The notes beneath the pieces are model-generated. The model was given only the letters and a program-made list of their open reading frames with translations. It did no database searches and was not told where the DNA came from. A DNA stretch of 64,000 bases from an uncultured virus (IMG/VR IMGVR_UViG_3300028888_002345) (taxonomy: Duplodnaviria; Heunggongvirae; Uroviricota; Caudoviricetes), in IMG/VR virus record IMGVR_UViG_3300028888_002345; one strand, written 5' to 3'. Shown here in pieces: positions 1 to 43,520 of this stretch (the first letter of the stretch is position 1; every line of letters starts with the position of its first letter). A program made the position numbers and the translations under genes.

Positions 1-794
1 AAATAAGAATAAAGTAAAACTTTTTCAATTTGTTTTTCTGTAAAATCCCTATTTAATCCAGATTCTTTATAAAAATTATATGCTATACCTGCTGTTGATT
101 CTATATAGTCAATTAAGAACATATCTATAAAAACACGCTATTTACTTTCAGCCATATATTTACGATTTGAAAGTGAATCAGGGTTAGCTACCCAAATATA
201 AGTAATTAAATCTGTTTTATATAAAGGAAGATTATAAGCAAGACGAATAAATTCCATCTAAGTAGAAATACATATATCTTCATGAGAAGTCATATCTTTT
301 ATATAATGAAGATTATATTTTTTCCAAAAGTTATCAAGATTAAAAACTTTTCCATGTGTCCATCCTGCAAATTGAGGCATTTCAAAAAATTTATCATTAA
401 CCTTTTTTACAAATTTAGTAAGAAAAACAGTATCACAACCAGTCTCTTCTATTTCTTTTTTTAATTTAGGAAGAGCACCTTTTACAAGCTAATCATCATG
501 ATCCATAAAAATTAGCCATTCTCCAAGGGCTTGATCTGCTCCCTTTTGTCTTGTATTTCCAGGACAACAATTATAATCAGTTTTAGTTTGAGTAATAAAT
601 AATTTGTCTGTGTATTGATTTACAATATCTTGATAACTTTCTGTAGAACAATCATCAGAAAGAATTACTTGAATTTCATCATATCCCATCTATTGAGATA
701 TAATACTATCTAATGCTGTTCCAATAGTTTCTCTTGAATTATAACAAGGAATAACTATTGAATAAAAAGGTCTATTATTTGTTAATGTAGGCAT
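1..794 (-). CDS. Glycosyltransferase family 2 (3' end outside window; TAG read-through)
   Basis: ATG at 794: MPTLTNNRPFYSIVIPCYNSRETIGTALDSIISQ*MGYDEIQVILSDDCSTE...EWLIFMDHDD*LVKG...; GT2 motifs SIVIPxYN, DDxS and DxDD; frame stays open to the window edge when TAG is read through. Confidence 0.85.
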
Positions 795-1248
795 ATCCTA
801 ATCCTATTGCATCTGCGATGTCATCATTTACCTATATATTGAAGTGGTCTTTTACCCATTGAATATCTAATTCTTTTTGTTGTTGACGTCTAACTCCTCG
901 TCCTTGTTTTATTTGACAAGTTTTACGCCAACTTGATGGATATAAGAAATCTATTTGTAAGTGTTTAAAGTTCTAATGTATCATCATTGATAAACAACCT
1001 TGTAGATACATTAGAACTTTATAAGTTTGTACATTAACAAAGCTCTCTTGTCTAACCTACTCAAGAACCACATATTCTAAATCTGGATTTTCAATAAGTA
1101 TTTTTTGTATACTATCAACCATAACTTTTATTCGATTTAAGAAGTCTAAAGATGTAGCTGTAATACAAGTATAATACTAAAGTTTATTATGTTTATAAAT
1201 TGCTATACCAGTACTTTTAGAGCTAGCATCGATTGCTAATAAATTCAT
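775..1248 (-). CDS. RuvC-like Holliday junction resolvase (4 internal TAG)
   Basis: MNLLAIDASSKSTGIAIY...VVLE*VRQ...YPSSWRK...VNDDIADAIGLG; RuvC acidic motifs; AGGAG RBS; ends TAA; missing from the ORF track. Confidence 0.85.
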
Positions 1249-1317
1249 TTATTTTCTCCTTTTGTTTAGTTATAGTATAACAAAATTTTTTAAAAAAATC
1301 AAATATTAAATAAGATT

Positions 1318-2850
1318 TTATGAAAATAGTTTAGATAAATCCTTACGACCTACAATTTTACGAATAACAGCAAAACCATTAGGATAAGTTCCTCCAGTGT
1401 CGGTAGTAACACTATATGTTGCACTTGAACCTGCAGCAGCTCCATTCCAAGACCATATAGTATGCTCTCCTAATTTAAGTTGATTAGTATAAGATTCATT
1501 TAAACCAAAATTAAGTGAACAAATAGCTAAATTTCCCTGTGCATCTATTTGTACTTCTCTAAGGAAACCTCCACTCATTGATAAAAAAGAAGATGTTTCA
1601 ATAGTTCTTGTTTCATTCTAACCATAAAAATCAACATAAAAATCAAGATAATCATAGTTAGTAATATCATCTATTAAATTAAATATTGTACCTACTGCTC
1701 TTTTAGTACCTGTCCATAGAACTTTTTCACTATTAGTTATTGCAGCTTTTTGTTCATTTAAATCTTCTTGTAACTGAAGTATTAAAGCCATATCAGCATT
1801 ACCGCCTTCTGCGGTAATGGTTCCTATAAGATTTCTTAAATCTTTAACCTGTTCTCTAACAGCCTATCCAGCAGAATTATATTGAGTACTGTCATAACCT
1901 ATTCTAATGTCATTAACTTCAGTATTTTCAACTAATTTACGACCCACAATTTTCTTTAAAGTTATTAAAGTTCTTTGACCACTTACTGGGTCAGAATAAG
2001 TAGTACTATCATTTATAAAAGTATATATTCTAGCATCATAATCTTTTTTGCCTTGCCAATACCATTGCACTTGAAAATTAAAACGTGCAGTTGTTCCAGA
2101 TAAAATAATATTTATTTCTTCTGTTGTTAAAGCTGTAACAATATTATTATTAGAATCACGTAACGCATTAGAAAGATTTATAAATCTAAATGTACTTTCA
2201 GTTGAATTAGATGCAATAGTTTTTATTTCTTTTCCTCCTTGAGAATCAAAATAAAAATCAATATAATCATAATTAGTAACATTATCTGATAATGTTATAG
2301 GATTATGATTTAATCCACTTAATTCTCCTTCCCATAAAACAGTTTCAATATCTACAACATTATTAGTTAAATTATCCATTCTAGCAGAAAGATTCTATAA
2401 ATCTGATTGATTTGCTTTATTTTCTATTTTTTTAGAAAGATTCTATAAATCTGATTGATTTGCTTTATTTTCTGCTAAATTATTATCTGCTGTTTCTCTA
2501 GCAGTTTTTTCAGCATTAATTTGATTTATAAGATTAGTAGATAATGCTGAATCAGCTTCTTGTCTAGCAGTTTTTTCAGCATCAATTTGAGCTTGTACGT
2601 TAGAAGGTACATTAACTAAATTATTTAAAGCACTAACAGCAAAATCACTTGCTGCTAATTTTCCATCTGAATTTGTTATAACTATTTTACTTTTAGTTAT
2701 TGTACTAGCAGGTAAAAATCTAGTTAAAGCTTCTTGTAAATTAGTAGTACCACCTATTGTACTACCTAATGTAATATTACTAGCATTTGCTCCAATATCT
2801 TCCGTAACCCAAGAGGAACCATCATATACGGATACTTGTTTTACTGACAT
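1318..2850 (-). CDS. Tail fibre / receptor-binding-like protein (510 aa by TAG read-through)
   Basis: Track ORFs 2443-2850, 1864-2379 and 1318-1578 share one frame and are joined by TAGs; coiled-coil EKTAR repeats, a YNSAG*AVREQ motif and two LW.G...L.D..TNYDY.DFY repeats. Confidence 0.7.
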
Positions 2851-2877
2851 ATATTATTCTCCTTTTATTCCAATTTA

Positions 2878-3117
2878 TTAAGATGTGATATGAAACCAAG
2901 CAGAACCCTTTTTAGGATTAGCAGGACTATTTTCACTAATTACTCTCATCTAATTATTTAAAACATTCTATAAATTATTAATTGCCTATTCATACTCTTC
3001 TATATCATTATTTTGAACAGAATTAATTGCATTTAAAGTTGTTTCATAATAACTATTTATATTATCAATAGTAATAGTGCCTTCTTCAATATGATTATCT
3101 ATTTTTTGAGTTGCCAT
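2878..3117 (-). CDS. Small tail-associated hypothetical protein (TAG read-through)
   Basis: MATQKIDNH...SPANPKKGSAWFHITS-TAA; GAGG RBS. Confidence 0.6.
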
Positions 3118-3128
3118 ATTACTACCTC

Positions 3129-3407
3129 TTATTTAAGAACTAACCAAATAGTTCCCTTTCCATAATTACTAGGTAAATTTTTTGGTACATTTCCATTTGC
3201 TTCAGAAAAGAATGTAGTTGTTTTACCTTCAAGAGTCGCTGTAAGCTATGTTAAATTATTTTCATCAGTAGAAACTCTATCTATTAAATTATTTACTCTA
3301 GTATTTAATTCATTTAATTGCATTGTATAGTAATTTAATTCAGAAGAAAAATCAAAATTCTTTTGAATTTTTTTTACTATCCAAACTGCCTCTGGCCAAC
3401 TACTCAT
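3129..3407 (-). CDS. Small tail-associated hypothetical protein (1 TAG)
   Basis: MSSWPEAVWIVKK...GKGTIWLVLK-TAA; AGGAG RBS. Confidence 0.6.
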
Positions 3408-3434
3408 ATCTATTTACTCTCCTTTACTCCTATA

Positions 3435-3959
3435 TTACGGATCTATTTGTTCATTAATTTTTGTATATCCAGTTTCTTCATTTTCTAAAATAGTAATAAT
3501 CTTACGGTGTAAAACTTGATTATCTTCCATATCACCTTTATATAAAATAATTTCAATTACTTCTATTTGAGTTAATATTAAAAAGTTTGAATCTGGATTT
3601 GAAGGGTCTTCAAGAAGAAAAGAATTATCTCCATTTAAATCGTTAGCAAGAATATAATCATTAATTGTTTCAGATTTTATAGTAGTTACTAATGAATAAT
3701 TAACTTTATTATTTTGAATCATTGCACTTAAAGAATCGTTTAATTTTTCTGAAAAATACCATTCTTTAATTGTAACAACTTCATCTGTCTACTCTACAGT
3801 AGCATAATGGTCATTTCCTAGTTTTAATTCTTCCTCCAAATCTAAACTAGATAACATATCAATTAAATATCCACTTGAACCAATAGGGATACCAGTGGTA
3901 TATCCGGAAGAAGTTTTTTGTCGAATTTCTTTTATTCTTCCTAAATTTCTATCACTCAT
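3435..3959 (-). CDS. Hypothetical protein (TAG read-through)
   Basis: ATG 3959 with AGGAG RBS, in frame with track ORF 3435-3722. Confidence 0.6.
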
Positions 3960-3982
3960 TAACTTTAATTCTCCTTTTCCTC

Positions 3983-4264
3983 TTAATATATAATATTTAC
4001 AATGGTACTGGATGGGGCACCATTCGGAAAAGATATTTCTACATTAGTTATCTATTCGGTTACTTCATAAATAAAAGTTCTCCCCATCCATATATCTTTA
4101 TTATTTATTAAAAAATGAAAACTGGAATCTGCATTTCCACTTCCAAGTTTCATATAATCTTTTTCTCCAATAGAAATACCAATATGGCATTTTCCAAGAA
4201 CATTAATAGTATGTCCTACTGAAAAAGGACCTGTTTTCTGTACAATTATACCACTATCTGCCAT
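3983..4264 (-). CDS. Hypothetical tail-region protein (1 TAG)
   Basis: Track ORF 4052-4264 continues *ITNVEISFPNGAPSSTIVNIIY-TAA. Confidence 0.6.
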
Positions 4265-4282
4265 ATTTAATCCTTCCTTTTA

Positions 4283-6592: not shown

Positions 6593-6607
6593 TTTAACTC
6601 CTCCTTA

Positions 6608-7438: not shown

Positions 7439-7463
7439 TTATTTCTACTCCTTTAACTCTTAA

Positions 7464-12373: not shown

Positions 12374-12402
12374 CCTTTATTCCTCCTTTTAACTCTTACT
12401 TT

Positions 12403-12849: not shown

Positions 12850-12901
12850 CGTGAAATTTACCTTTCTCAATAAAGTTTATTTATTATATATCATAATAAA
12901 T

Positions 12902-12937
12902 AAAAAAGGGACTAAGCAAATTAATTTGCTTAGTCCT
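12902..12937 (-). terminator. Rho-independent terminator-like hairpin
   Basis: GGACTAAGCAAAT/ATTTGCTTAGTCC stem followed by T6 on the minus strand. Confidence 0.6.
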
Positions 12938-13154: not shown

Positions 13155-13167
13155 ATAACACAATCCC

Positions 13168-17871: not shown

Positions 17872-17892
17872 ATAAATCTCCTTTTTCTCTCA

Positions 17893-17924
17893 TTAAAGAG
17901 AGAAGTAAAATACTTCTCTCTTTA
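17893..17924. terminator. Terminator-like hairpin after the tape measure gene
   Basis: AAAGAGAGAAGTA-aaa-TACTTCTCTCTTT inverted repeat. Confidence 0.55.
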
Positions 17925-26831: not shown

Positions 26832-26941
26832 AAACGTCTCCTCCTTTTATATCCTAAATCCTATGTATTTTTACATAAAAAAATTGCTCTCTTTGTAATA
26901 CATACAAAAAGAGCAATTTAAGATTATCTTATTTAGTCCTT

Positions 26942-27574: not shown

Positions 27575-27634
27575 AGATTTTTCTCCTTTTATCTCTTTTT
27601 TATAATTTTAACATAAATTTTAATTTATGTCAAA

Positions 27635-28711
27635 TTAATTATTTTTTAAAATAGTTTGAAAATACTAAATTATATAATTATATAAAGCTTCGCTATTAGT
27701 ATTACTAAAATTCTAAATATGCTATCTTAACTAAGGAATGTTTATTTTCTAATTTTGTAATGTTGAAAAATTCTCTTTAAAAGCTTGTGCTATTCCAATA
27801 TTTCCTGTTATACTAGCTGTATGAAAAGCTTTTCCTTGTTTTATAGCAAATTGTAAATTTCCACTCTAATCATATTTTATATCACCACGAACAATACCAG
27901 GAATAGCATCTCCACTTGAAGAATATTTTGCTAATAATTCTATATAACCTTCTTGACTTAAAATATAATTAGGCCCATTTACAGGATTCATACTAATTGT
28001 AGGATAATCTAAAGCCAATTGAATATATCCCTATCCAAGAAAACCCGCTGAGGCTATACTTCTATCAAAATGTTTATAATGTCCGTCCTCACTAACTGCC
28101 CAATATAAAGTTCTTTTTGGTATACCACCTTCTATTATATCTTTATCAGTATAAGCTACTGTTTTATTATATCTTCTTTTACCTTCTATAAAAACACCTT
28201 TTTTATTTTGAGTTGCAAAAGTAAGTTGATCCTGTATCTTTTGACTCTATTCATTTAATTCAAAAGGATTAAAATTATATGCACGACCTTCAATGTATCC
28301 TCTATAAACTTGATCTTTATTCATATCATATTTAGATAAAGTTCCCTCTGCATACATATTTAAAACAGCCTACTAAGAAGCTAAATAAACAACTCCTGCA
28401 TTAGAAATCCAAGTTATAGGAATCTATCTTCCTAAAAAATTATTCCACTAATGCTAAAAAGCATGACTTAAAATTAACATCTATCTTAAAGAGTACTAAT
28501 CATCGTGCATTAATTTTCCTACTAAACTAATTCTTTCTTTTAAATTTTTTATATTTTGTAATCTATTTATATGTACATCAATAGCATTTAAATATCTTAT
28601 ACAAATCTATAAAAACTAATTTAAATCAATTTGCCTTTTCTATAAAATTCTTTGATTAGTTACTTTTTCAACAAGATTATATATTATTTCTTTAGCAATA
28701 GTTTGAGCCAT
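27635..28711 (-). CDS. Hypothetical protein (358 aa, TAG-rich)
   Basis: MAQTIAKEIIYNLVEK... to ...QTILKNN-TAA; missing from the ORF track. Confidence 0.55.
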
Positions 28712-28730
28712 AAAACATACCACCTAACAA

Positions 28731-28758
28731 AAAATAGGGGACTTTCGTCCCCTATTTT
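28731..28758 (-). terminator. Terminator after the tail tube gene
   Basis: AAAATAGGGGAC-tttc-GTCCCCTATTTT hairpin. Confidence 0.7.
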
Positions 28759-28767
28759 AATCTATCA

Positions 28768-30147
28768 TCAACCAGCTGCGCCGGTTTGAACCTTAAAGTA
28801 AACAGAATCACTTGTAGATTCACCAGTCTGGATAGTAGCAATAAGAGTGATTTCTCCACCATTCTTAAGCTTCTTAATCTGACCAGTAACCTTGTCAAGT
28901 TCGACAGCATCCGTGTTTCCAGAGATGCTATAAACAGGTCTGATTTCATCAATGACATCAATACCATTAGCATCAGGAGCCTTTAAGTATTCCTTAAGCA
29001 TGATAACGTCACCAACATTGAGTAATTCTGGTAACTGATAAGCACTAGCAGCAGAATCAGCATCAGAATCATCCTTAGCCTTTAAGCTAGCTGCTTTATA
29101 TCCCTGCTCATCTTCTGTAAGGTTACTATCACTAACAAATGCTTCAACTTCTTCATCAATATCATTGTGATACATAACAGGATCAGCTTCACTAGATGTA
29201 CCAGATCCACCAAGACCAATAGTATCAACAACCTGAAGAACTGCAAGAACTTTCTTCTTTCTGTCGAAATATGTGTATCCTGGGAAAGCATCCATAGTAA
29301 AATCAAATGTACTTGGATCACCAGTTCCAGCAAATGTCATCGTAAAGTTACTCTGTAATCTAACATTCGGGAATGTAAGGTTAGCAGGTAAATCTTTACC
29401 AGTATACTGATCTCTAAATAAAGTATCAGCTTCAACATAATAGTTACCACCAAAAGTATCTGGTGTAATATCAGCTTCATATACATGTCTGCCAGGAAGA
29501 TCGATATAATAATCAACCATAACAGCCTTATCAGTAGTTACTAAGTTACCATTAGAATCTTTAACATTTGCTAATTCAAAGATACCAGTCTTAACTGTAG
29601 AAGCAGTCGTAATAGTTCCAGTGAAAATATTACCAGTTAAAGAACCGTCATCTTCAGTTTCCATGATGTAAATAGGAGCATCATCAACACTTAAAGAAGC
29701 TAAACTACCAAAATCAGCAATAGCATCTCTTAAATCGATCTTAGCTGTATTGCTTGTTGTTGCAGGAGTATAATCAACATCAAGTGTAGCACCACTATTC
29801 ATATGGAAGTGAACAAGGTCTTCATTATGTCCATTTTCTTTATCGCTATTGATACCGTCGCCACGTTTGAATAACCCAGCGCCAGAAAGAATTGCAAAAC
29901 CAATTGGAGAAAGTAAAGCATCAGTAAAACTGAAAGTTAAAGTTTTTTCACCTTCCCAAGCAAGGAGTCTAGTATTACCTCTACCACCTTGAGCATAAAC
30001 TGTTGTAGTAGATTGTTCCATACTAGAAGTAGTTGCTGTGTCTATATAAAGAACAGGCTGACCACTCTGGAAAGTAGCTGTACCAATTCTAATTGGCTGT
30101 TTTGCACGGAAAACGATGTTTGCACATTCGCGCACACCAAACTTCAT
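28768..30147 (-). CDS. Major tail (tube) protein with C-terminal Ig-like extension; no TAG
   Basis: MKFGVRECANIVF...YAQGGRGNTRLLAWEGEKTLTF...FGGNYYVEADTLFR...GDPSTFDFTMD; synteny with neck genes and TMP. Confidence 0.8.
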   Translation of the reverse strand: MKFGVRECANIVFRAKQPIRIGTATFQSGQPVLYIDTATTSSMEQSTTTVYAQGGRGNTRLLAWEGEKTLTFSFTDALLSPIGFAILSGAGLFKRGDGINSDKENGHNEDLVHFHMNSGATLDVDYTPATTSNTAKIDLRDAIADFGSLASLSVDDAPIYIMETEDDGSLTGNIFTGTITTASTVKTGIFELANVKDSNGNLVTTDKAVMVDYYIDLPGRHVYEADITPDTFGGNYYVEADTLFRDQYTGKDLPANLTFPNVRLQSNFTMTFAGTGDPSTFDFTMDAFPGYTYFDRKKKVLAVLQVVDTIGLGGSGTSSEADPVMYHNDIDEEVEAFVSDSNLTEDEQGYKAASLKAKDDSDADSAASAYQLPELLNVGDVIMLKEYLKAPDANGIDVIDEIRPVYSISGNTDAVELDKVTGQIKKLKNGGEITLIATIQTGESTSDSVYFKVQTGAAG

Positions 30148-30175
30148 AAGTTTTTTCCTCCCTTTATTTTAATAA

Positions 30176-30964
30176 TTACTAAAATTCAATTCTATTAGAA
30201 CTAGGTCGAGAAATAATATTTTCCTATTCATCACTCAACCAGTTATCTACATCTTCTAAATTTTCAGCTCCAGCTAGTTTAGATTTTAACCAAATATCAT
30301 AACTATATTTTTTCTCAAAACGCTGAAACTAATCAAATAATTGATAAACAGTATACTCCATTAATTCTGAATATGTATGATGATTAGCTTGAATTAATAT
30401 AGATATATAACGACTCAAAATATTTATAGCTTTCTAACCATCTTGTTTCTTTTGTAATTTCTTATGTCTGTCTCTTAATTTATTAGCTATCTGTTCTGCA
30501 AGTTTATTTGCAGGATTATAATCAGCTCGTCCTTTAAGAGCATCTAAGCAGAACATCTACTTTATAATTTTTTTAAACTATTCAAAATTACTATCTTTTA
30601 TTAAACATTGTTCTTTTTTTCCATCCTTTTGCCTTGTTAATACTAACATAGTTGGCATTTTCATTAATTCATATTCAGGAAAAATAAGAGAGAGAACAAG
30701 TTCAATAGACATTACATTAACAGTTGCGGTAGTATCTGTCTTATTATTTATTATTGACATTAATACATCAAAATTTGTTCTGTTTCCTAAATTTATTTTG
30801 TCCTACTAATTTAAATTTTCTTTAGAAAAAGATAGGAAATTGCATCCTAAATAAAATAAATCTTCTCCAAGATAAGCAATTTCCTTAATTCTTGGTTGAT
30901 GTATATTAATATTACCTTGAACAAAAGGAAGATCATTTCCAGAGAGTAAAAGAAGTTTATTCAT
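30176..30964 (-). CDS. Neck/tail-completion region protein (262 aa, TAG read-through)
   Basis: MNKLLLLSGNDLPF...HQPRIKEIAYLGE...KLAGAENLEDVDNWL; ends TAG-TAA. Confidence 0.65.
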
Positions 30965-31598
30965 ATTCTAAACTGCCTTTATTCTATTTGTCCTCAGTAA
31001 AATGTACTGCTCTATAAGATAAAGTGTACATAGAAATATCTTCATTTAGCACGACAAGATTAAGACCTAAAAAGTAATATTCTCCCATACCAGAAAGTTT
31101 AACATTAGTACTAGTCCTATTTTGCCAAGCTATTTTATTATCATTTGATATAGAATTTAAAATCCCATCTATATAACCTGCAATAACAATTGGCCTAGTT
31201 TGAAAATTATTTAAGTCCCATTCATCATCATAACATATAATGTCAAAATTCATAGTACAATCCATAAACTTTGGATCTACTGCATTAGAACTAAAATTAT
31301 CAAAAGTCAATAGAATAAAAGATTTTATATTCTAAAATTCTTTTCTTGCAATTTTAGGATTTGTTCTTACATAACCCTAAGAACGCAATACACTTAATGG
31401 TTTACTATCAATTAATTTCTGATAATCTTTATTTTTCTAATCTAAACAATCCGGATTATTTACAACTAATAATCTTTTTAATCTATCACTATATGGTTGA
31501 CTTTTTACAAATAACTATTTTAATACTGTTTCAGTATCTTGCGCACATGAAAAAAATGAAGAGTGTATAGGACGTAATTTTGTTACATCTGCTCTCAT
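30957..31598 (-). CDS. Tail terminator / neck protein (213 aa, TAG read-through)
   Basis: Extends track ORF 30984-31310 at both ends; FDIICYDDEWDL motif; synteny. Confidence 0.55.
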
Positions 31599-31618
31599 TT
31601 ATAATCTCCTTTTATCTC

Positions 31619-32800
31619 TTAATTAAAAGGTTTAACTGTTATAGTTGAAACCTAATTTCCATACTTTAAATTAAAAGTAATTTCTGAAGTTACTTTTTTT
31701 GCTTTTATCTTAATTTCATCTTCAGACTGACTTAATATCTGGACAGGAGCGGCCGCAGGTATTTCCCACTCAGAATGCCCATCTGGAACATAATACTTAA
31801 CTACATCATAAGATTGTATATTTTTTGGTCCAATAATCTATAATACTTTCTACTAATCTCTTTCTTGAATCTATTTAATCATCTAATTAGTACTAGTATA
31901 AGTTTCTTTTAAAGCTACTCTAATTAATCCACCAGTAGAATTTTTACTACTAGTCCCATAATTATCATTATATCCTTGTACCTACCAAGTTTGACCATTT
32001 ATAACAACTCTTTCAAAACGCTTAAAAAATTCTGTAGTAGTCTAATCTTTTGTAATATACAATAATTTTGTATAATACATATCATTCCAAACTACTCCTC
32101 TTTTTACATTCCAAATTGCTTCATCTTCATTTGGTCCAACTGTCCATCCATGATAAATAACTGGTTCTCCTTCAGATCCATCCTATTCAATTGGAATTAC
32201 TTCAATTTCATCATCAGCTTTTCTTATTTCTCCTCTAAAATAAGCGGTTTCCTAAGAATATTGCAAATAAATAATCCAATAAGAATTAGGCATATATCCT
32301 TCATTTCCAGAAATCCACTGAAAAGTATCTCCTGGTCTAACTCGATATACTTTTATGTTTCCATCCTAATCTTCTACTAAATTCCCCTCTGAATCATAGA
32401 AAGATCCTGGAGTTCCCACATCTACAAATCTATCTTCTAAAGCATAATCTTTTTCATATTCAATAGGAACCTCTCTAAAAGGAATTGATAAAATTTTATC
32501 CTAATAATCAACTTTTAATTTATCATGATTTATTAAACATCTAAAATGAAAATCTCTGTCATCTTTATCAAACTTTATAATAGCAGCTTGATAAGAATTA
32601 AATAAAGCTCGTTTCATACTACGAAGCTTATCTTCTCTTAATCTAACTAAAGGATCAGCATAACCGGAAGTTTCCTTTCCTCTTACATTAACCTTTTCTC
32701 CATACTAAGGTGTAAAACTTTTATCTGTATAACCCCAATTAGACATTTTATCATAATTATAACGAGCTTTTAATAAATCAACATTTTTTAATACAGACAT
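31619..32800 (-). CDS. Head closure / head-tail connector (393 aa, TAG read-through)
   Basis: DKLRSMKRAL...FRCLINHDKLKVDY*DKILSIPF...; position downstream of the capsid gene. Confidence 0.6.
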
Positions 32801-33107
32801 TTTGTTTTATCTCACTAAGTAAACTTAAACACTAAAAGATTATTCTTCGATATAAAGGAAATTGTTCTTCTTGAATTAAAAAATTCATTCCTTCTAATTT
32901 ACATAATAAAATTAAAAAAGATTCCTATTGCTATCCTACAAACAATCTTTGTAATCCAACAAGCTACTATATAACAGTCTGTAATGGTTTTTGCCAATTC
33001 TAACCCTACTCTCTAAGAGGAAGAAGCTTATATATTTGATTTATAATTCTTTTTATATCTTTTTCAATAATTTTATTAGATATATTTAAATTATACTTTA
33101 ATATCAT
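32778..33107 (-). CDS. Hypothetical head-region protein (109 aa, TAG-rich)
   Basis: MILKYNL...IYKLLPLRE*G*NWQKPLQTVI**LVGL...RRIIF*CLSLL; TGA overlaps the next gene. Confidence 0.65.
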
Positions 33108-33723
33108 AATAAACAATATCCCCCTGAACTGAATTTCTAGAGTAGGAAGCATCTTTTCCCTTTTCACTAATCTCTGGAAGATCTGGTCTCCTTGAGTTTG
33201 GCAATTCATTATCAGACATTGGTTCCATAATTTTCTTCATAGTAGAATGATATACACCATTAAGGTCTGAAATACGACGTTTATAAAGTCTTTGTAAATG
33301 AAAACCTTCTCGCTAATAATCTTTTTTCATCTGTAATATTTTTTGCATATGATTAGCTTGAGAAGTAAACTTAAAATCAGACCCACTATATTTCATACGT
33401 ACATTTTCAATAGAAGCTAATTGTTGCCCTAGCCATTCTACTATCATATAAGTTGAAAGAATATTTATTTCTTCAAGAGTAAGAGAGTTAAGAAAACCCC
33501 AATACTACTCTACAAAAACAAAATCCCCTTGTTCTGTCTTTCTTCTCTATATAATATAAGCATATTCCAATGATTGCCTTGGAAATTCAAACTTTGGAAT
33601 AGCTGCAAGTAAAAGCTGACGAAGAATAGCTAAAGTATCCTATTCTGTCAACTCTAAATACATATCATCTGTTATTTTAGAGAGAAAATTATCATATACT
33701 ACTGAAAAAGCGGTAGGTTGCAT
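33091..33723 (-). CDS. Head-tail adaptor-like protein (210 aa, TAG read-through)
   Basis: MQPTAFSVVYDNFLSKITDDMYLEL...EEINILSTYMIVEWL...SDFKFTSQANH; AGGAGG RBS. Confidence 0.65.
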
Positions 33724-33742
33724 AATATTCCTCCTATAACAA

Positions 33743-34333
33743 TTATTTATTTTCTTTTATAATAACTCTGCGGGCGCTGGTCTTTCCTGGAATCGACTAG
33801 TTACTATCTCCGTTTGAACGGGCCGCCGCGCGTCTTTGTCCAACTGGTTTAACAGATAAATCTGGAACGTCTTCTTCTGTAATTTTCTTATTTTCAATTG
33901 CGTTAGTTACATTAAAACCTAACTTCTTTTGAATAGCATCTCTTTTTGCTACATCATTTAAAGGTAATTCAACTGCAAGTGTTTTAATTGTTTCTTTAAC
34001 TCCATCTGGAGCAAAATCAAGACAATCTAAAAATTCATCTAAACTACCAGTTTGCATTAATCTAATAATATCTTCTCTAGTATAAAAATACTCTGGTTCT
34101 GGAATAAAATTAATTTCAGATAAAATCTCTTTATCTTCTATTGTTAAATAATTTTTTAAAATTTTTGAACCACCATGTAAATAAGAAAGCTTTCTTATCT
34201 CTTCAAAGGTAACTATTTTTTCTTCGCCATCTTCAAAAATTCTTGTTAAATTATTCATATCAGGAATGGTATATCCTACTGTTCCATTTCCAACACGATT
34301 TTTAATTTTTACTTTCCTATTATCTTCTACCAT
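33743..34333 (-). CDS. Conserved post-capsid hypothetical protein (1 TAG near the C-terminus)
   Basis: Track ORF 33797-34333 extended to the TAA at 33745-33743. Confidence 0.7.
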
Positions 34334-34362
34334 ATTAACTTTTCTCCTTTTATCTCTAAAAA

Positions 34363-34398
34363 AATATTGGGGAAGATATTCCTACCTTCCCCATATTA
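34363..34398 (-). terminator. Terminator after the major capsid gene
   Basis: ATGGGGAAG/CTTCCCCA stem followed by a T-run on the minus strand. Confidence 0.6.
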
Positions 34399-34401
34399 AA
34401 A

Positions 34402-35436
34402 TTACATATTAATGTCAAGATCTTCGTTTCTGTAAGAGCAAAGGCCTGGATTAATACTATAAACAGCAACACCAAATTTCTGGTATGTGTGAATAGTCTT
34501 GCTCCAGTCATCGCCATCGACTTCTTTAACCTGAGCAGTTCCTTCGAAAGCAACCTTAACAGGTTTTTCAGAGCCAGTAGGAATAATCCAAGCATAAGAA
34601 GGATCGATAACCTTAACAGCATTTGTCTCATCTTCGAAAGATTGAGGAAGAACAATAACTTGATGTCCTTTGTAATCACCAAGATAACCCATGTTCCAAC
34701 GTCTATCTCTCATATTATCAGAAACCCAACCGGTTTGAGGAATCATCGTTGCCGCGAATTCAAATGTGCAATAAATAGCAGCTTTACCATAAGTATCAGC
34801 AACCATTAATAATTTATCCATCTGAGGTTCACTGAATCCATTTCCGGAATATTTATTATGCGCACCAAGATTTGTAACAGTAGACATAAGAGCCTTAGCA
34901 ATCTCTTTATAAACTGCTTCATCCATTCCTTCAAGAACGATGTCATAAACATCAGCCATCGTAATTCTGCCATCAAGGAACTCTTCAAAAGCAATCTGAG
35001 CAGCTCCGCCGTAAGCTGTGGTATTAACTGTTAAAGAAGCACCATCAAGTTTGAATACTTCATATCTACCAGCAAGACCAACTTTAGTTACAAACTGTTT
35101 TGCTCTACGTCTAGAAGCTTCAGATATTCTCTGATAGAAGACAGGCTGATCGCCCTGAGCAAAAGTACGAACATCTGCGAACTGACCATATTCAGCAAGA
35201 ACCTTAGGAGCAAGAACTTCACTAAGTTGAATCTCAATCAGTTCAAAAATAGTATTTTTATTTTGTCTATAAAGAGCAGGTGTAGCAGAAAGCTCTTTAA
35301 TTTCTTTTCTAAATGTATTTTCTAAAGCATTAGCACTAAGCGTTTCTTCGCCAAAAGAGAATGTTAAAGAAGGATTAACAGACGCTTTAGCAGTAGCTCT
35401 AGCTAATTCGATTAAACTTTGTCTTTCTAAAGCCAT
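34402..35436 (-). CDS. Major capsid protein (344 aa); no TAG
   Basis: Start MALERQ with GAGGAGG RBS; size, synteny after the protease/scaffold and cement genes, codon usage typical of high expression. Confidence 0.85.
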   Translation of the reverse strand: MALERQSLIELARATAKASVNPSLTFSFGEETLSANALENTFRKEIKELSATPALYRQNKNTIFELIEIQLSEVLAPKVLAEYGQFADVRTFAQGDQPVFYQRISEASRRRAKQFVTKVGLAGRYEVFKLDGASLTVNTTAYGGAAQIAFEEFLDGRITMADVYDIVLEGMDEAVYKEIAKALMSTVTNLGAHNKYSGNGFSEPQMDKLLMVADTYGKAAIYCTFEFAATMIPQTGWVSDNMRDRRWNMGYLGDYKGHQVIVLPQSFEDETNAVKVIDPSYAWIIPTGSEKPVKVAFEGTAQVKEVDGDDWSKTIHTYQKFGVAVYSINPGLCSYRNEDLDINM

Positions 35437-35450
35437 TTTTATTTTCCTCC

Positions 35451-35981
35451 TCAACTAATTCTCTGAATTTTAACACCTGGCTGCATATCAGGCATCGTGT
35501 AAACTTTAGCAACCTGCCAAATCATACCTGTATCAGCAGTAGTAGCAGGTGTAAGATAACCAGTACTCTCATCAACCTTTAAAAGATCACCTACGTCAAG
35601 ACTTGCGCCAGAGACAGTAGAAGCAGGAGATGTATTAGCACCAAAAGTATTTGTTGTATAAATATCGCCGATTTCAGTTCTAAGTAATCTTGGAACTAAT
35701 TCGCCGCCCATGAAATCACTCTTTTGCATAGCATAATCTTTAAGAGCCTGTGCTCTTTGATCATAAAGTTTGATTTCATTCATAACAAGCATCCATTCGC
35801 CCTTACCAGTTAAATTGCATTCTTTATTTGGGTAGTCATATTTTAAGAACATACCATTTTCAAGAATATTGAATACTGTAGAGGCAGGAAGCTGAGCATA
35901 AATCTGGCCATTAGTCTGAGCAGAAAGATGATTAGGCTCAACCTGTCCAAAACCTTTTCTTGAGATTTGTGTTTTTGCCAT
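35451..35981 (-). CDS. Capsid cement / decoration protein; no TAG
   Basis: GFGQVEPNHLSAQTNGQIYAQLP...YTMPDMQPGVK; directly upstream of the MCP gene. Confidence 0.7.
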   Translation of the reverse strand: MAKTQISRKGFGQVEPNHLSAQTNGQIYAQLPASTVFNILENGMFLKYDYPNKECNLTGKGEWMLVMNEIKLYDQRAQALKDYAMQKSDFMGGELVPRLLRTEIGDIYTTNTFGANTSPASTVSGASLDVGDLLKVDESTGYLTPATTADTGMIWQVAKVYTMPDMQPGVKIQRIS

Positions 35982-35997
35982 TTTTAAGCAATCCTCC

Positions 35998-37356
35998 TTA
36001 ATTATTTTCCATATCTATATTATTCTTAACAGCTTTTACCCAATCAGGTAAATTTGAGTCGTCATTAGAATAACTAAATGTTACAATTTTTTGTTCTTTA
36101 TTAGAATCAATTTCTTCCTAAGTCTATAAATTAAAATTGACCTTTTTCTCAAAACAAATTACAGCAAGTTTAGCTTTAATTTCATCATAAGAATATTTTT
36201 CTTTATTATCAAGAATTTCCTTTTTATCTTCATTAGAAAGCATATAAAATTCTTCATTAATTAAAGCATCTTTCTTTTCGTTTTCAACTTTGTTTTTAAA
36301 TTCAACAAGAGTATCATAATCAGCTTTTAATTGCTGATATTGAGTTGAAAGTTCATTGTATTGCTGTTCTAATAAAGAGTATTTCTTTTTGTCGTCTTCT
36401 TCCTAATCATCTGAATTCTAAGAATCCTAAACTTTCTAATCCTCTTCTTCGTCATCCTTTTTAAATTCAGACTCAGGTTCTTCCTGCGTCTATTCTTTTT
36501 CAAAGTTTTCAGATACTTCTTCCTAAACAACAGGAGCTTCTGCTTCAAAGGAATTTTCAACGACTGGTTCAGAAGGTTCAACATTGTCCTGTATATTATC
36601 TTCTGTAAAATTATCAACAGGAAGTTTTACTTCTTGTTCCATTATATTTCCTCCTTTTAGAGCATCTTGTAAATCTTTCATCATTGAAAATAATGTTTTT
36701 TTAAAATTATCATCAACTGTTTTACTAAAATTAGAACTTATTATAGGCTTTGTAACAGAAGCACCCTCAAAACAAGGTTCTGTATCATTACCTAAAATAC
36801 ATAATTTTGTAAATATTGCATCATTGATTATAAAAAATTCCATATCATTTTTAACATTTGTTGCCCAATGACCTTCTAAAGATTCTTCATCTAATTCCAT
36901 TGATTGAGGTTTACCTTCATCTATAACAGACTGCACTTCTTTAAATTGACCAGTCCATAAATATCCAGTAGTCATAAGATACTCTCTCTATATCTCATTT
37001 CCAAAATCATCTGAGTCGTTAAATTTTTGGAACCAGACTTTTGCATCAGGAGCAACAAAACCGTATGGCTTTGTTAATACGTTAAAATGAATACCCTAAT
37101 CATCCCAAATCATTTGTTCGCCATGATCAGTAAAATCTTCTTTATTTTCTTTATAATAACCAACGATTGGAGCGCCACGTAATGTTTTTGCCATTTCAGT
37201 AGCAACTTCTTTTGAGATATAACTACGATTTCTATTTTCTCCTATATATAAAACCTTAATTTCACAAGATGACATTAAAGGATTTATATCTAAAGGTTGT
37301 AAATTAATAAATTCAGGAGAATTTATCGTAGCAATAGATTGATGTGGCAATGCCAT
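35998..37356 (-). CDS. Prohead protease / scaffold protein (452 aa, TAG read-through)
   Basis: Track ORFs 37096-37356 and 36523-36975 in one frame; GENRNRSYIS, GAPIVG, QSMEL and LCILG..EPCFEGA motifs followed by an acidic scaffold tail. Confidence 0.8.
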
Positions 37357-37371
37357 GATTATCTCCTTTCA

Positions 37372-39030
37372 TTACATACTCTATCTATTTGCTATAGTTT
37401 TATCACTCTTCTAGTTATCTGCCTTTTCTGGGCGGCCGGTCTAACCGGTACCGCTTCCAGAAGTATTTGCCTTATTTGATTCTTTACCGGTAACGTTTCC
37501 CCTCCCCGCGAGTGCTTCCGCATTCATCGTACTACTCATCATTGGCGGGATAAATACACGAACCAGATCAAGAATATCATTTTCAAAGTAAGCATTAGCT
37601 AATATAGAACTTTGAGTTTGTCCAAGTGCAACTTGAGGTAACATTTTAGAGAAACCAATTTGCATTTGTTCTTTATATAACTTAGATACTTCTTTATAAT
37701 TATAGATAGTAGTATTTAAAAATTGTGCTTTATAATAACATTTATTTGGAGATTTATTGAAAGGATCTAATAATAAATTTAAGAAAGATTCAAATTGCAG
37801 TAATAAATCATACATAGAAGCTTCATCATTTAAAATAGAATTATTTAAAGCAGTATTACTATCACTATTAAACTGCATCTGAGAAACACCAGCTTCATTA
37901 TAAACTGTTCTTTCAACCTTTTCCAATTCATCTACATTAGATTGATTGCCCTTATCTGACATATCTGCTACATCTACATCTGCAAATGTAGTAAGAACAT
38001 CAATACCTATTGCTCTACCTAACATTTTTACTGCATTATTATGTAAAGCTTGAGCCTCATCTATATCAAATACTAAATCTCCATTTTTATCTAATGGCAT
38101 TTTTTGAATAATAATTTTTAAAAGCTTTTGAGCCATCCTTTTTCGATCTAAATCTTGAGCAGCATCTAAATCAACTATATAAGGAATAATAGATAAAAAA
38201 GGAGGATAATCATTATCATTTAAATTAAATTTTACCACAGAACGATAATCTAATAAATACCAACTTCCAGAATCTCCTGGGAAAGCTTTTGGTAATTTTC
38301 CCTTTTTATACAGTTCATATCCTTTTTTAAACTACTTTGGGAATAAATTTAATATTTTAATTCTTTGCTAAGTATCTTTATAAAAATTATCAAAAAATCT
38401 CATATCAAATTCAACAGTTGGTCTATTATTTACTTCTAAACTAGATCTACAGTAATTAGGTAATAATTCTTGAACAACAACTTTATTATTTTGAGAAATT
38501 AAATATCCATAATAACAACCGTTCCTAATTACTTTTAAAGCAACTTTTCCACAAAATCTTTTTACTTCAAACTAATCAAAAAATTTTAAAACTTTAAAAA
38601 AGTTTATAAATTGTTTCTTTCTAATCTTTTCATCAGCTTGTTCATTAGCTTCTGTATCTTGTAAACCTGCATTAGTATCTAATAAACCAACACATTGCTC
38701 AATATATGGTGTTATAAACCAATCATATTTATATAAATAAGCCATATAACGACATAATCTACTATAAATACCACTATGTTTATAAAAGAAATTTGAGATA
38801 TCTCGCATTTCTGCTAAATCACCATTATTAATAGCTTTTAAAATATTCTATTTAGTACCTAATCTTGGATTAGTTTTTCTTAAATCACCATATGTTACAA
38901 TAGCATCATCTAAAGTTTTTAAACCAACTTTAATTTTATTAAAATCAAGAGGAGTATATCTCTCGTCGGTGTCGGTGGCAAGGTTCATATTAAAACCTTT
39001 TTCTTTAATTTGCGCCATTCTATTTTTCAT
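37372..39030 (-). CDS. Portal protein (552 aa, TAG read-through)
   Basis: Track ORFs 38848-39030, 38572-38808 and 37441-38238 in one frame; ends TGRPEKADN*KSDKTIANR*SM-TAA. Confidence 0.8.
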
Positions 39031-39047
39031 AAGACACCTCTTTAAAA

Positions 39048-39404
39048 TTAATATCCAGCTAGTTTCATAATATAATCATAAGTAATTATTTCCTAATCCC
39101 AATAAGGAATTAAAACTAAATTAATATTATTTTTATGACAATATTCTCTTTTTTTCATATCATAAAATTGCTGTTTTTTAAGTCCAGTCATACCGCCAAA
39201 TTTAGGTTTAGGTTTATAATGTTGTATTCCTTGATACTATATTAAAAAATCTATTTCACCATCGTCATCAAAAACAGCAAAATCAAAACGTAAAGGATGA
39301 CCTGAAGAACTTATTAAATCCTTAAAACTATATTCCTATTGAAAATTTAATCCTGCTTTTCTTAATATATCTTCTATTTTTATCTATCCATAAGAAGCTC
39401 TCAT
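39048..39404 (-). CDS. PD-(D/E)XK / Vsr-DUF559-like endonuclease (118 aa, 4 TAG)
   Basis: MRASYG*IKIEDIL...FQ*EYSFKDL...LRFDFAV...FLI*YQGIQHY...DMKKREYC...LVLIPYWD*E. Confidence 0.8.
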
Positions 39405-39478
39405 TTATTTCAGTTCATCTCCTTTTACTAACTATTATTATTTAAAAAAATAATAATATTTTTTATCTTTTTTGTCCT

Positions 39479-41218
39479 TTAACTGAAAAACATTAAATCG
39501 GCTATATTTAAGCCTTTTCGTTTCTTTTTTCGATCTTCTTCTTGTTTTATATAATATAATCCATAAACAAAAGCTGAGAATTTATCTTTATTTATACCTC
39601 TAGAAGATTGTTTTAAAATAATATTAACTCCTTCATTTTCTTCTACAAGATTTAACATCTGCGCTTTAAGCGCATCTGTTAAAACAAAAGGCATAAGATA
39701 ATCATTTCTTTGATCTGGACTCATATTTTGACCGACTTTTGTACTCATCAACTTTACTCTTGCTTGAGATTCATCAATAAGCATTTTTATACGACCTGAA
39801 GAAAGTTGAGTTTTAGCATAAGTATATGCCTACGTATTAATAGGTGCATTTGCTTTTACTAAATATAAAGCATTTTCTTCAACACCTGCTCCTCGTATTT
39901 TTTTATATAAATCAACAGTATCTTGAGCAGTCCCACCTTCTACGCCAAAAGGAGGAAGTTCATCCCCTGTCTAAGGATCAATTTGAGCCTTAGTCATAAA
40001 ATCAATCAATCCAACTCCAAGTCCATTGGCATCAACAGAAAGAACTCTTGCTTTATATTTATAATATAACCTTTTTAATTTAATACTTTGTTCTTCAAAA
40101 TCTTCTGCCTAATAAGTATAAATATTTACTAAACTTTTTAATGCAGCTCCTTGAGGCTGAGGAGTTACTTTAAAAACTAGTGCCTCTGTAGTACATTTAA
40201 TACGACCAACGTCAACTCCAATAACATAGTATGCAGTTTTTGAACTGCGGCCGCTGTATTCATATTCAGGCTGGAGTAATGTTCGATGTTTATCAAATTT
40301 ATCGCCAGAAAAGAATGCATTCTAAGCATCTCCAGACCAAATACTACGGTACTATCTATCAAAAGAATCTTCATTAAAAGTACCTGAAAGTTTAAGCTGA
40401 TCCACAAAATCCTCATTAAGAAGTCCTTCTTTAACAGGAGTCTCATATGTACCACCCATTATCATAACTTCATCTGGATTTATAATACTTTGTACAAGAA
40501 GCTATATTAATTTATCATATGCAAAAGTATTTTTCCAACCGGCTGTAGTAATATAAATTTGAGATTTATTTATTAATTCATTTTTATGCATAGATCCATC
40601 TGCAAGTACACGGTCTACGTTTGTAGTAGGAATAATTACCTCATTTAATGTAGTTCCATCAATAAGAACACACTACTCCATCAAACCACCAGTACGTCTC
40701 TGTCCTCTTGATTTTTCACTTGCTACAAGAATATCAAGAGTAGAACCATTTTTCCATACGTAACGAACATTATCTCTTCCTTTAGTTGTTTTACCACGCT
40801 ACCAGTTAATTTCTTTTTCTAAAACAGGTAATAAATGACATATTTCTTCTACTTTAGCCATTGTAATACTAGCTGCTTGCTATTTACCACCAGTAGTAAC
40901 AAATAAATGACTACGGGGATAAAAAGTACATCTAAGCATTAATGCCATAATAGAAAGAAAGGATTTTGAATAAGCACGCGGAAATGTTGCATAGACATAC
41001 CGATGCCGCATAACTACACGAAGGAAAACTCTTTGATAAAATTTAAAATTAAATGTACTATCAGGCCCTTTTACATAATCAACAAAAAGATCTGGATACC
41101 ATTTAAAAAAAGCAATTAAATGTCTAATATTTTCAAGATTAGCATTTAATCTTTCTTCTGAAATACCTTGCTTTTTATCTTTTTGACTATTTAACTAAAG
41201 GAGTGCTTGAAGGCTCAT
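39479..41218 (-). CDS. terL: Terminase large subunit (579 aa, 10 TAG)
   Basis: Walker A PRAYSKS, Walker B GGLME*C, coupling motif ITTAG, nuclease motifs GVDVGR, VDANGLG and KDKFSA; fully hand-translated. Confidence 0.9.
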
Positions 41219-42396
41219 CTATTTTCTTCATCCTCCTTCTTTTGTTTCTAAATCTAATTATTGTAAGCTTGAATATCTTGGTCTGTTATCTAAACATAAT
41301 CCAGTCCTTTTTCTTTGGCTTCTTTCCTATCTTGTTTTTGCTGCTCATTATTTTTAATCTTCTTTAAATAATCTTCTATCTATCTTTTTAAAGCAGGATC
41401 TTCATATACTAAAGATTTAGTATAATCTTTTAAATCTTTTATAATAACATCTACTACATCTAACTATACATCAATAGGAATTTGAGGAATTTCTCCACCA
41501 TGCTTCTAACAATAGTCAACAAGCTAACCAACCGAATCTATAAACTAACTTGTTTTTTCTTTATTCTGAGCAGCTGTAAATTTTGCAGACTTTCGTAATG
41601 TATCAGAAACTCTTGCTAATTTTTGATAACCCTAAAGATCCCCTTGATCAATAGCCTGATTCATTTTAAGATTATTTTTACAAATAAGAATAAGAGTAGA
41701 ACGAGTATCTGCATCTTGAATATCAAAAGACTCCATCATCTCATTATAAAAAGTTTCAAGCTATACCCATTCTTGAGGAGTATAATATCTACCCCATTTC
41801 ATAACAAGATATTTTTTGTCTTCTTCTGTTAAATCTTGTGCTAAATCTGGTATTTCCTATTCAGGCATAAAATTTTTTTCATTATATAAATTGTTCTGTC
41901 CAATAGGAGAATAATCCGCGGGAACAGGTTTATCCCGCTAACGCTGGATCTCCGCTTTTACTAGGGTGCGATATTGAGCTTCTGTAATCTAGCCTTTCTA
42001 AAATTGATCAGCATACATTTCAGAAAGGGTCTTGTCTTGTTCCGCTTGAGCGGCGACCGCGAGTTCATGCTATTTTGTTAATTTTTCAGTATCCTTCCAA
42101 CCATAATCCTTAAATTGTTTAAGTTTCATTTTAGAAAGATATTTACCGAATACAGTAGTATCATTTTTTTTATTTGGGTTTTTAGCATAAGCTTTCTACC
42201 TTAAACTATCCCATTCCCAAGGTAGCCAAGGGACATCATACTCTTCTAATAACCAAACAAAAGTATTTGGATCCCAAATATCTACATGCATTAAAGTGCA
42301 TTCTTTACATAAAGAAGGTTTAGATCCATCCTTATACGTATAGAACATTGTTTCTTCTTTTGTTCTACCGCATTTAGAGCAAACTAACTTTGACAC
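41215..42396 (-). CDS. Zn-finger protein upstream of terL, possible terminase small subunit (393 aa, TAG read-through)
   Basis: GTG start with GGAGG RBS; CSKC...CKEC; the TGA overlaps the terL ATG (ATGA). Confidence 0.55.
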
Positions 42397-42410
42397 TGTA
42401 TAAAACCTCC

Positions 42411-43520
42411 TTATTTCTTTTTATTTCGACATTCTTTACAGATTGAATACCATCCATCTTTACTTGTATTATTCTTAGAAAAAAATTTATTATGGGCTAA
42501 TTTAATTTGCCCACATCTAGAACAACGTTTCCATTTCCCCTTTTCTACAAAAGTATAATACCAAATTAAATAATTTTTTTCCTAATATTCTGCTATTAAC
42601 TTAGGAATTTTCTTTCTCCATAAGGAAGAAAGATATTCAATAGAATAAGAATGTCCATACTTTTTATATAATAACTATTGAATTTCTAAATTTGATTTAC
42701 CATCTATTTTATAAATTAATAAATCATAATAAAGAGGATATTTATCTTTTAATGCATTATCTATAATATTTTCTAAATCTTGCATTAAATAAAAAATATC
42801 AGAAGTAAAATGTCCTTCTGCCTATTGTTTAATTTTAGAATAATTACATAAAAGAATTGAAATATGTATAGGATTAAAAAAAGAAATTAATCCTTTATTT
42901 ATTATATTTCCATCTTTATCAATTTCTATTCTATCAGACAAGTCAAGAGTAGAAAAGCTTTTTATAAGATTTAAACTATATATAATAGGTTTATAAGAAC
43001 TCTTTATAATATATTGATCTTGTCTCATCTAAATAATTTGCTTTTTAAGCAAATATTTTTTTCTTCCTCTTGCCTTTTTTTCTAGTTCCTATACCTTTTT
43101 TATTTCTTCTCTAAGCTTTTTTAACTAAGGTATATTCTAAGCTTCCTCCTAGGATATTTTATATTTAGGGGTTAATAAGACATTTTTATCATTTATAATC
43201 ATATTATAAATGCCATCTTCACCATTCTAAAATTTTCCAACTAATCCCTAAAAAGAAGTTTCTCGCTTATTAATAGTTACCATTCTATTATCTGTATTAA
43301 TATTCTTTTCTTTCTTCTCTAACTTTGTCATTGCAAATATGATATAGTCAGCGAGAATCTACAAATATTTATTATTTAATTTCTAAGGAGGAGCATTTTC
43401 AACTATTTTTTTAACTAATTCTACTCGATCTTCAGGACTTTCAAGAGAGTAGTCTAAACGTAATACCTCTTCTTGACTAGTATCAATCTCCTTTGGACCG
43501 ACGCCCGCGTTTTCTTGCAT
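42411..43520 (-). CDS. Putative transcription regulator with HTH-like region and C-terminal Zn finger (369 aa, TAG read-through)
   Basis: LDYSLESPEDR...YL*ILADY...RETSF*GLVGKF*NGEDG...EYLSSLWRKKIPKLIA...CSRC...CKEC; first gene of the late strand. Confidence 0.55.

Follow-up and report, generated by a model that had tools for sequence, protein, structure and literature searches.

A ruminant-gut phage that appears to read the amber codon TAG as glutamate in its late genes

Which amino acid does a phage insert at TAG when this codon interrupts most of its late genes? The question is raised by a 64,000-nucleotide stretch of an uncultured member of the Caudoviricetes (IMG/VR record IMGVR_UViG_3300028888_002345; hereafter the window, by which we mean the whole stretch at its full length), whose minus strand carries a late-gene block at 3-43586 with TAG codons in frame throughout. 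A first interpretation made from the letters alone (the sequence-only reading) had proposed that TAG is recoded here to glutamate rather than to glutamine. Comparison with related phages leads us to the same answer: the late genes (virion, packaging, resolvase and glycosyltransferase) very probably use TAG for glutamate, and the early genes use the standard code.

Under the standard code (table 11), the window holds 14 open reading frames (ORFs) of at least 150 aa, and 34 once TAG is read through. With such read-through, 26 ORFs of 155-2969 aa tile the minus strand from 3 to 43586 and contain 316 in-frame TAG among 13,737 codons (2.3%). Every interruption is TAG (316/316) and none is TAA or TGA, as had been noticed from the sequence, and the contexts then quoted (GGK*QAA, LME*CVL, FDR*Y, IDP*TGD, FPK*FKKG and others, the asterisk being TAG) are all present in the translations. 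The complete ORFs stop at TAA (22) or TGA (3), the remaining one leaving the window at its start. Counted together with GAG and GAA, TAG accounts for 316 of 1,134 codons, three times the number of GAG. Reading this single stop as sense restores conserved late genes to full length, a feature of code-switch phages: the terminase large subunit (TerL; 39479-41218, 10 TAG) becomes a protein of 579 aa, the portal protein (37372-39030, 7 TAG) one of 552 aa and the tape measure protein (17922-26831, 79 TAG) one of 2969 aa. These names are backed by family matches, as are those of a RuvC-like Holliday junction resolvase (775-1248, 4 TAG) and a family-2 glycosyltransferase (3-827, 6 TAG), the 3′ end of which lies beyond the window start. 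In the late genes, TAG is a sense codon, and TAA and TGA are the sole terminators. The sequence-only reading had placed the recoding at 1-43520. A recoded late block is indeed found there, but its last gene begins at 43586, and recoding goes on outside it, in another, smaller group of minus-strand ORFs interrupted by TAG (60739-62802; for example 61230-62009, 7 TAG) and past the window end, where the 99%-identical contig G002 carries plus-strand tail-fibre-like genes with TAG (28593-44686; L118, L119).

The early genes are spared. Small plus-strand ORFs tiling 43667-60097 are open under the standard code, and just two ORFs in this range (45544-45936 and 53300-53788) need TAG read-through. The terminators of 27 plus-strand early ORFs are TAA (24) and TGA (3), never TAG; these ORFs were chosen as TAG-free, so their lack of internal TAG is by construction. 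Early genes under the standard code and a TAG that terminates none of 25 late and 27 early ORFs are both features of code-switch phages. Could there nevertheless be no code change at all, the window belonging to a decayed or misassembled phage or bearing base-calling errors that turned GAG into TAG? Nothing favours this beyond the in-frame stops themselves, and it would have to account for interruptions that are exclusively TAG in full-length, conserved genes, for the sparing of the early genes, and for TAG codons that are both common to, and variable among, independent contigs. Contig G002 keeps 49 of 53 aligned TAG. The 55 TAG codons in 36000-43600 are represented in contigs of three other studies by 55, 54 and 38 codons, among which A>C, the substitution that gives GAG on the gene strand, occurs 0, 1 and 0 times; the counts are per-run tallies of change types and come from contigs, not raw reads. 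GAG at the TAG sites, which the sequence-only reading had named as evidence that would undo it, is, with that one exception, absent from the contigs of these three studies. In an RNA library, contigs that match the window exactly or almost so span 18 TAG codons, all unchanged, although DNA carry-over is possible there. In-frame TAG is not an assembly artefact and is kept in independent assemblies; the chance that no code change took place is negligible.

The residue for which TAG stands was read from alignment columns. Late proteins with TAG translated as X served as the hub, and tblastn was used to record the codon opposite each window codon in 81 loci. The relatives compared were the best 80 of 250 IMG/VR relatives (63-98% identity). 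References were the 38 of 81 loci without an in-frame stop in at least 500 aligned codons, which were taken as standard-code, the other 43 being left out. TAG positions covered by at least eight references were considered assessable; there are 64 of them among the 316, all in eight head-module genes at 30957-43586. The column consensus at these positions is Glu in 33, Asp in 11, Ala in 4, and Asn, Gly and Pro in 2 each, the other 10 columns being spread over residues that lead at most two columns each. Among the 22 columns that are at least 80% conserved, the consensus is Glu in 16, Asp in 4, Ala in 1, Lys in 1 and Gln in none. The log-odds score over the TAG columns is +68.4 for Glu, -50.3 for Asp and -85.1 for Gln, and Glu is the top residue in seven of the eight genes assessed. 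Alignment of TAG-as-X proteins to standard-code homologues was the check that the sequence-only reading had itself suggested, and it favours Glu and rejects Gln; columns dominated by Gln, or lacking any Glu enrichment, would have spoken against the claim, and Gln is ahead in at most one of the 64.

Ten TAG codons fall on columns with Glu in all relatives or all but one. In TerL, residues 113 (33/33), 182 (33/33), 289 (35/35) and 463 (38/38) lie in all-Glu columns, as do residues 233 (25/25) and 550 (19/19) of the portal. The conserved protein upstream of the terminase (phrog_3314; 41215-42396, 16 TAG) has TAG at residue 297, Glu in 28/28 relatives, and at residue 136, Glu in 25/26; in the sigma-factor-like protein (phrog_5767; 42411-43586, 12 TAG) that heads the late operon, TAG residue 120 is Glu in 19/19. 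In three cultured-phage terminases, the residue opposite TerL 182 is the second acidic one of GLIDE, GLIEE and GLVEE, a Walker-B-like GL[IMV][DE]E motif. Glutamate at the second acidic position of a Walker B motif is normally catalytic, and residue 182 is probably such a catalytic glutamate; since no solved structure matches the terminase in sequence, the motif alignment is the basis of this assignment.

It is at this residue that ordinary code 15, under which TAG would encode Gln and the Glu columns would reflect tolerated Glu-to-Gln replacements, faces a difficulty, as Gln at the Walker B glutamate is expected to abolish ATP hydrolysis. The other (near-)invariant Glu columns, the absence of any Gln consensus among the 22 conserved columns and the log-odds score point the same way, and the late proteins would contain 6.3% Gln against 2.0% in the early proteins; with TAG counted as Glu, they contain 8.3% Glu, and the early proteins 9.2%. 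Code 15 has precedent on its side, being the sole amber reassignment in the recoded-phage literature examined (here and below, statements on published work refer to the accessible text of the sources), and NCBI taxonomy labels the related phage phAss-1 'Caudoviricetes code 15 clade'. Two relatives do carry TAG on Gln columns (L041, 12/27; G012, 11/16 conserved columns), and Gln is common in a few columns of the window itself, such as portal residue 540 (E 11, Q 9) and residue 339 of the gene at 41215 (Q 17, E 13). Taken over all columns, TAG does not sit at Gln columns as table 15 would have it, and we regard code 15 as very improbable for this phage.

Control codons in the same alignments return their own residues: GAG falls on Glu in 27/37 columns, GAA on Glu in 147/211, TGG on Trp in 28/38, CAG on Gln in 26/38 and CAA on Gln in 53/96, and seven control codons are assigned correctly by the log-odds score (with E, Q, D, K and W among the residues recovered). 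By the same method and over the same columns, TGA falls on Trp columns in 23 sister loci, and TAG falls on Trp columns in L069 (13/15) and L036 (7/9) and on Glu columns in L006, L007, L008, L009, L042 and L034. The 146-kb contig of L069 (G004) encodes a 93-base CUA tRNA (L099:1932-2024) located 8 bases after tRNA-Trp(CCA), of which it is a clear paralogue; columns and tRNA type agree in this clade where both are visible. TAG=Trp was not met in the recoded-phage literature examined, which has only TGA=Trp. Exchange between TAG and GAR is also found within the window's own lineage, TAG standing opposite window Glu codons 13 times in L007 and 16 times in L008.

A wider and noisier comparison with five distant genomes aligns 272 of the 316 TAG positions and extends the result to the tail genes. 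In head genes, the partners of TAG are Glu in 35% and Gln in 7%, to be compared with 45% and 4% for true Glu codons and 11% and 35% for true Gln codons. In tail genes, the values are 15% Glu and 6% Gln for TAG, 26% and 7% for true Glu codons, and 12% and 23% for true Gln codons. In both gene sets, the distant partners of TAG thus appear to resemble those of Glu codons, not those of Gln codons.

How could TAG be read as glutamate? The closest large relative with the same pattern, G003 (137 kb, TerL 74% identical), offers a candidate decoder. Its in-frame stops stand opposite window Glu 18 times and window Gln once, and against standard-code references, with thin coverage, its TAG codons have a Glu consensus in 6/18 columns and in 3/4 conserved columns. 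Directly after a tRNA-Tyr, at G003:23216-23289, lies a 74-base cloverleaf with a CUA anticodon, whose best match among the 17 tRNAs of that genome is tRNA-Glu(UUC) with a score of 63, the next being 44. By eye, it has U8-C9, a D-stem G10-U11-C12-U13, the pairs U11-A24 and U13.G22 and a 4-base variable loop; U11-A24, U13.G22 and the lack of base 47 are identity elements of E. coli tRNA-Glu (PMC9976931). A 37-kb fragment, G014, with replication genes 54-73% identical to those of G003 and 127 TAG in its ORFs, encodes an orthologous CUA tRNA of canonical form that is called by ARAGORN and whose acceptor stem is that of G003 save for one compensating pair. Its TAG positions face Glu 21 times and Gln 4 times, and in the controls true Glu codons face E 463 and Q 48 and true Gln codons E 45 and Q 138. 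The TAG patterns of G003 and G014 can be said to favour Glu weakly to moderately.

In both of these CUA tRNAs, the first acceptor pair, read by eye, is C1-G72; in the CUA tRNAs of TAG=Gln relatives it is U1.U72 and A1-U72 (G012) or A1-U72 (the Phassvirus-like type). Bacterial GatCAB tells U1-A72 from G1-C72 (PMC2811023), and these few cases suggest that the first acceptor pair may decide between Glu and Gln. The Glu-type scaffold that we defined (CUA anticodon, U11-A24, U13.G22, a short variable loop and a first pair other than U1-A72) is found in G003 and G014. Because the CUA tRNA of these relatives is a tRNA-Glu paralogue with C1-G72, a tRNA-Glu(CUA) origin of the decoder, one of the two options of the sequence-only reading, is favoured by analogy. 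We propose the following mechanism. TAG would be decoded by a phage-encoded CUA tRNA derived from tRNA-Glu and located in the unseen part of the genome, which the host glutamyl-tRNA synthetase (GluRS) is assumed to charge with Glu. More speculatively, a GluRS-charged suppressor with C1-G72 may be ignored by GatCAB and stay Glu, whereas one with A1-U72 or U1.U72 may be amidated to Gln in hosts that make Gln-tRNA by amidation. As the suppressor would be made only after infection starts, the late proteins could be completed only then.

The first-pair contrast also lends itself to the other origin of the decoder that the sequence-only reading had considered, a CUA suppressor derived from tRNA-Gln, charged with Glu by a non-discriminating GluRS and escaping GatCAB through a changed first pair. 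The TAG=Gln CUA tRNAs of the clade have a weak first pair and those of the Glu-favouring relatives C1-G72, so that a change of this pair could switch Gln to Glu. Yet the CUA tRNA of G003, at 63 against tRNA-Glu(UUC), scores only 44 and 30 against the genome's own tRNA-Gln genes, and its U11-A24, U13.G22 and 4-base variable loop are those of tRNA-Glu identity (PMC9976931). We consider a tRNA-Gln ancestry doubtful, though well short of negligible, and retain tRNA-Glu as the favoured source.

Several points weigh against glutamate, or temper the force of the case for it. The comparison tells what TAG replaced, not directly what the ribosome inserts, and the 38 references are akin to one another, so that the column counts are not independent events. 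TAG columns are less rich in Glu (33/64) than those of GAA (147/211) or GAG (27/37), and an Asp consensus is commoner (11/64, against 18/211 and 3/37). Individual columns disagree: besides the single Gln-led one at residue 339 of the 41215 gene, residue 67 of the same gene is Asp in 26/26 relatives, residue 335 of the 42411 gene is Ala in 24/24 and residue 28 of the 30957 gene is Lys in 8/9. The decoder itself is not in sight. ARAGORN including introns, Rfam at loose E-values and our own cloverleaf scan gave no credible suppressor tRNA in the window or in contig G002, and neither the CUA tRNA nor the release factor 2 or GluRS for which the sequence-only reading had advised a search was found in the window and the 16 kb beyond it, that is, in 80 kb of ~130 kb. 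The sole tRNA gene of the window is tRNA-Lys(UUU) (57875-57948, plus strand), which is no suppressor; the same tRNA-Lys is the only one in G002 with its 16-kb extension, and no release-factor or tRNA-synthetase domain was found in the early block at 43667-60097. The T-loop of the G003 CUA tRNA (GGCAGCA) is non-canonical, and neither ARAGORN nor Rfam detected this tRNA; G013, which has the same odd tRNA type, shows TAG columns with Q 7, K 5 and E 3 of 22; and a CUA anticodon alters C36, a strong identity element of E. coli tRNA-Glu (PMC9976931).

The relaxed columns, with their excess of Asp, are also what ambiguous decoding of TAG would produce, either as a Glu/Gln mixture, as when a Glu-charged suppressor is amidated in part, or as a Glu/Asp mixture. 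The hosts are likely to belong to the Bacillota, among which many form Gln-tRNA through amidation of Glu-tRNA (PMC9976931), and therefore the suppressor could be partly amidated. The invariant Glu sites, however, would not bear a large share of Gln, the CUA tRNAs of G003 and G014 have C1-G72 and not the U1-A72 needed by bacterial GatCAB (PMC2811023), and the Asp excess is equally explained if TAG arose mostly at tolerant acidic sites, which is how we read the looser pattern. Ambiguous decoding is thus improbable, and unambiguous glutamate remains our preferred assignment.

The behaviour of the sister loci places this assignment in a broader frame. Among the TerL relatives L006-L085 (TerL 53-98% identical), the tree tally counts 43 standard-code, 23 TGA=Trp, 6 TAG=Glu, 2 TAG=Gln and 1 TAG=Trp. 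In a FastTree of TerL (support values not read), the code states are interleaved, and the TAG=Glu loci fall into two groups, (window, L006, L007, L008) and (G003, L034), both inside one TerL clade together with eight standard-code loci. We tentatively suggest, as an idea that we hold with less than even confidence, that stop codons have an evolutionarily fluid meaning in a single clade of phages from ruminant and human guts (standard, TGA=Trp, and TAG as Gln, Trp or Glu), that the amber meaning is set by which tRNA gained a CUA anticodon, and that the 1-72 pair acts as a one-step switch between Glu and Gln. If true, the window phage would belong to a natural series whose viruses can give a codon a new meaning by one or two tRNA mutations. 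The presence nearby of relatives with four other code states opens the origin and switching of codon reassignment to study.

The odd tRNA family deserves a closer description. The GGCAGCA T-loop goes with a D-loop without GG and was found only in G003 and G013; the copy of G013, at about 107093-107165 (L338, L332, L368, L369), ends in GCCA, and between the two copies each of the three stems compared shows compensating changes. An anticodon arm identical to that of the G003 tRNA is present in 11 viral contigs, but the only Glu-like copy among them is that of G003. Typing of CUA tRNAs by their nearest neighbour among 172 typed tRNAs failed to discriminate, and one hit, in L139, first taken for a Glu-type CUA tRNA, is more plausibly a tRNA-Arg(UCU). 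In the 169-kb G008, a tRNA-Arg(UCU) (L127:18444-18595) contains a 77-base 'intron' that is a tRNA-like sequence with a CUA anticodon; the terminase of G008 has no in-frame TAG. For the glycosyltransferase at the end of G002, the closest relatives among viral and metagenome contigs are 79-84% identical (G006, G007, L205, L207); these have tRNA clusters, in which no CUA tRNA was found, and few in-frame TAG. Between tRNA-Val and tRNA-Arg of G006, apparently a standard-code relative, there is a weak tRNA-like Rfam hit of 23.9 bits (G006:14885-14956, L200).

The window is part of a siphovirus-type phage of ~130 kb that infects ruminant gut bacteria and belongs to a clade with the phAss-1 group and the Enterococcus EF1/H1-like phages. 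A TerL search matched 128 GenBank phage records, the nearest being a 12-kb unannotated human-faecal contig (74%), followed by, among others, Enterococcus phages VRE9_4, H1 and EF1 (44%), Geobacillus virus E3, Alicyclobacillus phage KKP_3916 and phAss-1 (41%). Thirteen late proteins match the locus of Enterococcus phage H1 in the same order, so that the head module is shared in both homology and arrangement. The nearest record, entered as both G001 and G002 (44.7 kb), is 99% identical to window 35426-64000 and continues for 16 kb past the window end. The stretch 36000-43600 is present in public runs of 14 studies, the labelled ones being sheep, bovine and unspecified gut metagenomes. The tail-fibre-like genes of G002 contain repeated 'PSGYIQPAGT' units and have a TAG-free glycosyltransferase alongside; the window lineage carries them at the site of the tRNA cluster of G003. 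The terminase of G003 (113324-116011, L299) is in two pieces, residues 1-112 and 112-579, about 950 bases apart, and in some other loci (L018, L031 and L078) the matches are far longer than 579 codons; such split and overlong genes suggest that one site carries an insert (intron, intein or homing endonuclease). A search with the leftmost large protein of the window (1318-2850) gave no relatives.

Three late genes are free of TAG: 28768-30147, a virion structural protein (phrog_2729); 34402-35454, a phrog_4088 gene that is probably the major capsid protein, the name being taken from its position; and its neighbour at 35451-35981. The exceptions thus comprise one structural protein of the virion and two neighbouring genes that are probably the capsid pair, so that the presumably most abundant virion proteins avoid the recoded codon. 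If the sigma-factor-like protein, with its 12 TAG, drives late transcription, its own synthesis would need the suppressor.

The assignment has practical consequences. For amber-recoded phages, TAG=Gln (table 15) is the only choice in phage gene callers and databases; here it would place Gln at ~2.3% of late-protein residues, including probable catalytic glutamates, and a wrong residue at TAG distorts annotation, structure prediction and proteomic searches. The glutamate assignment also breaks a generalisation, as only TAG->Gln and TGA->Trp have been observed where a phage departs from the code of its host (Borges et al., bioRxiv 10.1101/2021.08.26.457843): the finding implies that a code change can draw on host GluRS and not on GlnRS and TrpRS alone. 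The same survey finds a suppressor tRNA in just part of the known recoded phages. The sequence-only reading had been unaware of UAG->Glu in any phage, and this holds within the full-text literature searched, which covers neither subscription journals nor supplements: TAG=Glu in a phage was found nowhere there, and the accessible text of Borges et al., the phAss-1 paper, Cook et al. 2024, a 2026 jumbo-phage survey and a 2026 k-mer code screen contains no such case.

The window phage has close counterparts in all respects tested but one. It is like the TAG-recoded phages (phAss-1, the proposed Phassvirus, crAss-like and Lak phages, and the clades of Borges et al.) in having in-frame TAG concentrated in genes of the late, virion and lysis types, standard-code early genes and no TAG terminator, and like phAss-1 in particular in its TerL (41% identical), genome type and tape measure protein of ~3000 aa (PMC10607447, accessible text). 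It is unlike the code 15 phages described there in that their TAG aligns with Gln and their suppressor is typed as Gln, whereas TAG of the window aligns with Glu. With the TGA=Trp phages of gut and rumen (code 4, 'Agate'-like; 23 sister loci, TerL 55-67% identical), it shares late-gene recoding and the clade, but neither the stop codon nor the amino acid. In eukaryotic nuclear tables 30 and 31, UAG stands for Glu genome-wide, and so does TAA. The window phage resembles these tables in reading UAG as glutamate, its TAG codons lying at Glu columns, and differs from them in that TAA is not co-reassigned but is the main terminator (22/25 late and 24/27 early stops), in that the use of TAG is limited to late genes, and in that a virus makes the change inside a standard-code host. 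Its genetic code seems to be one that has yet to be described in print for any bacterial virus.

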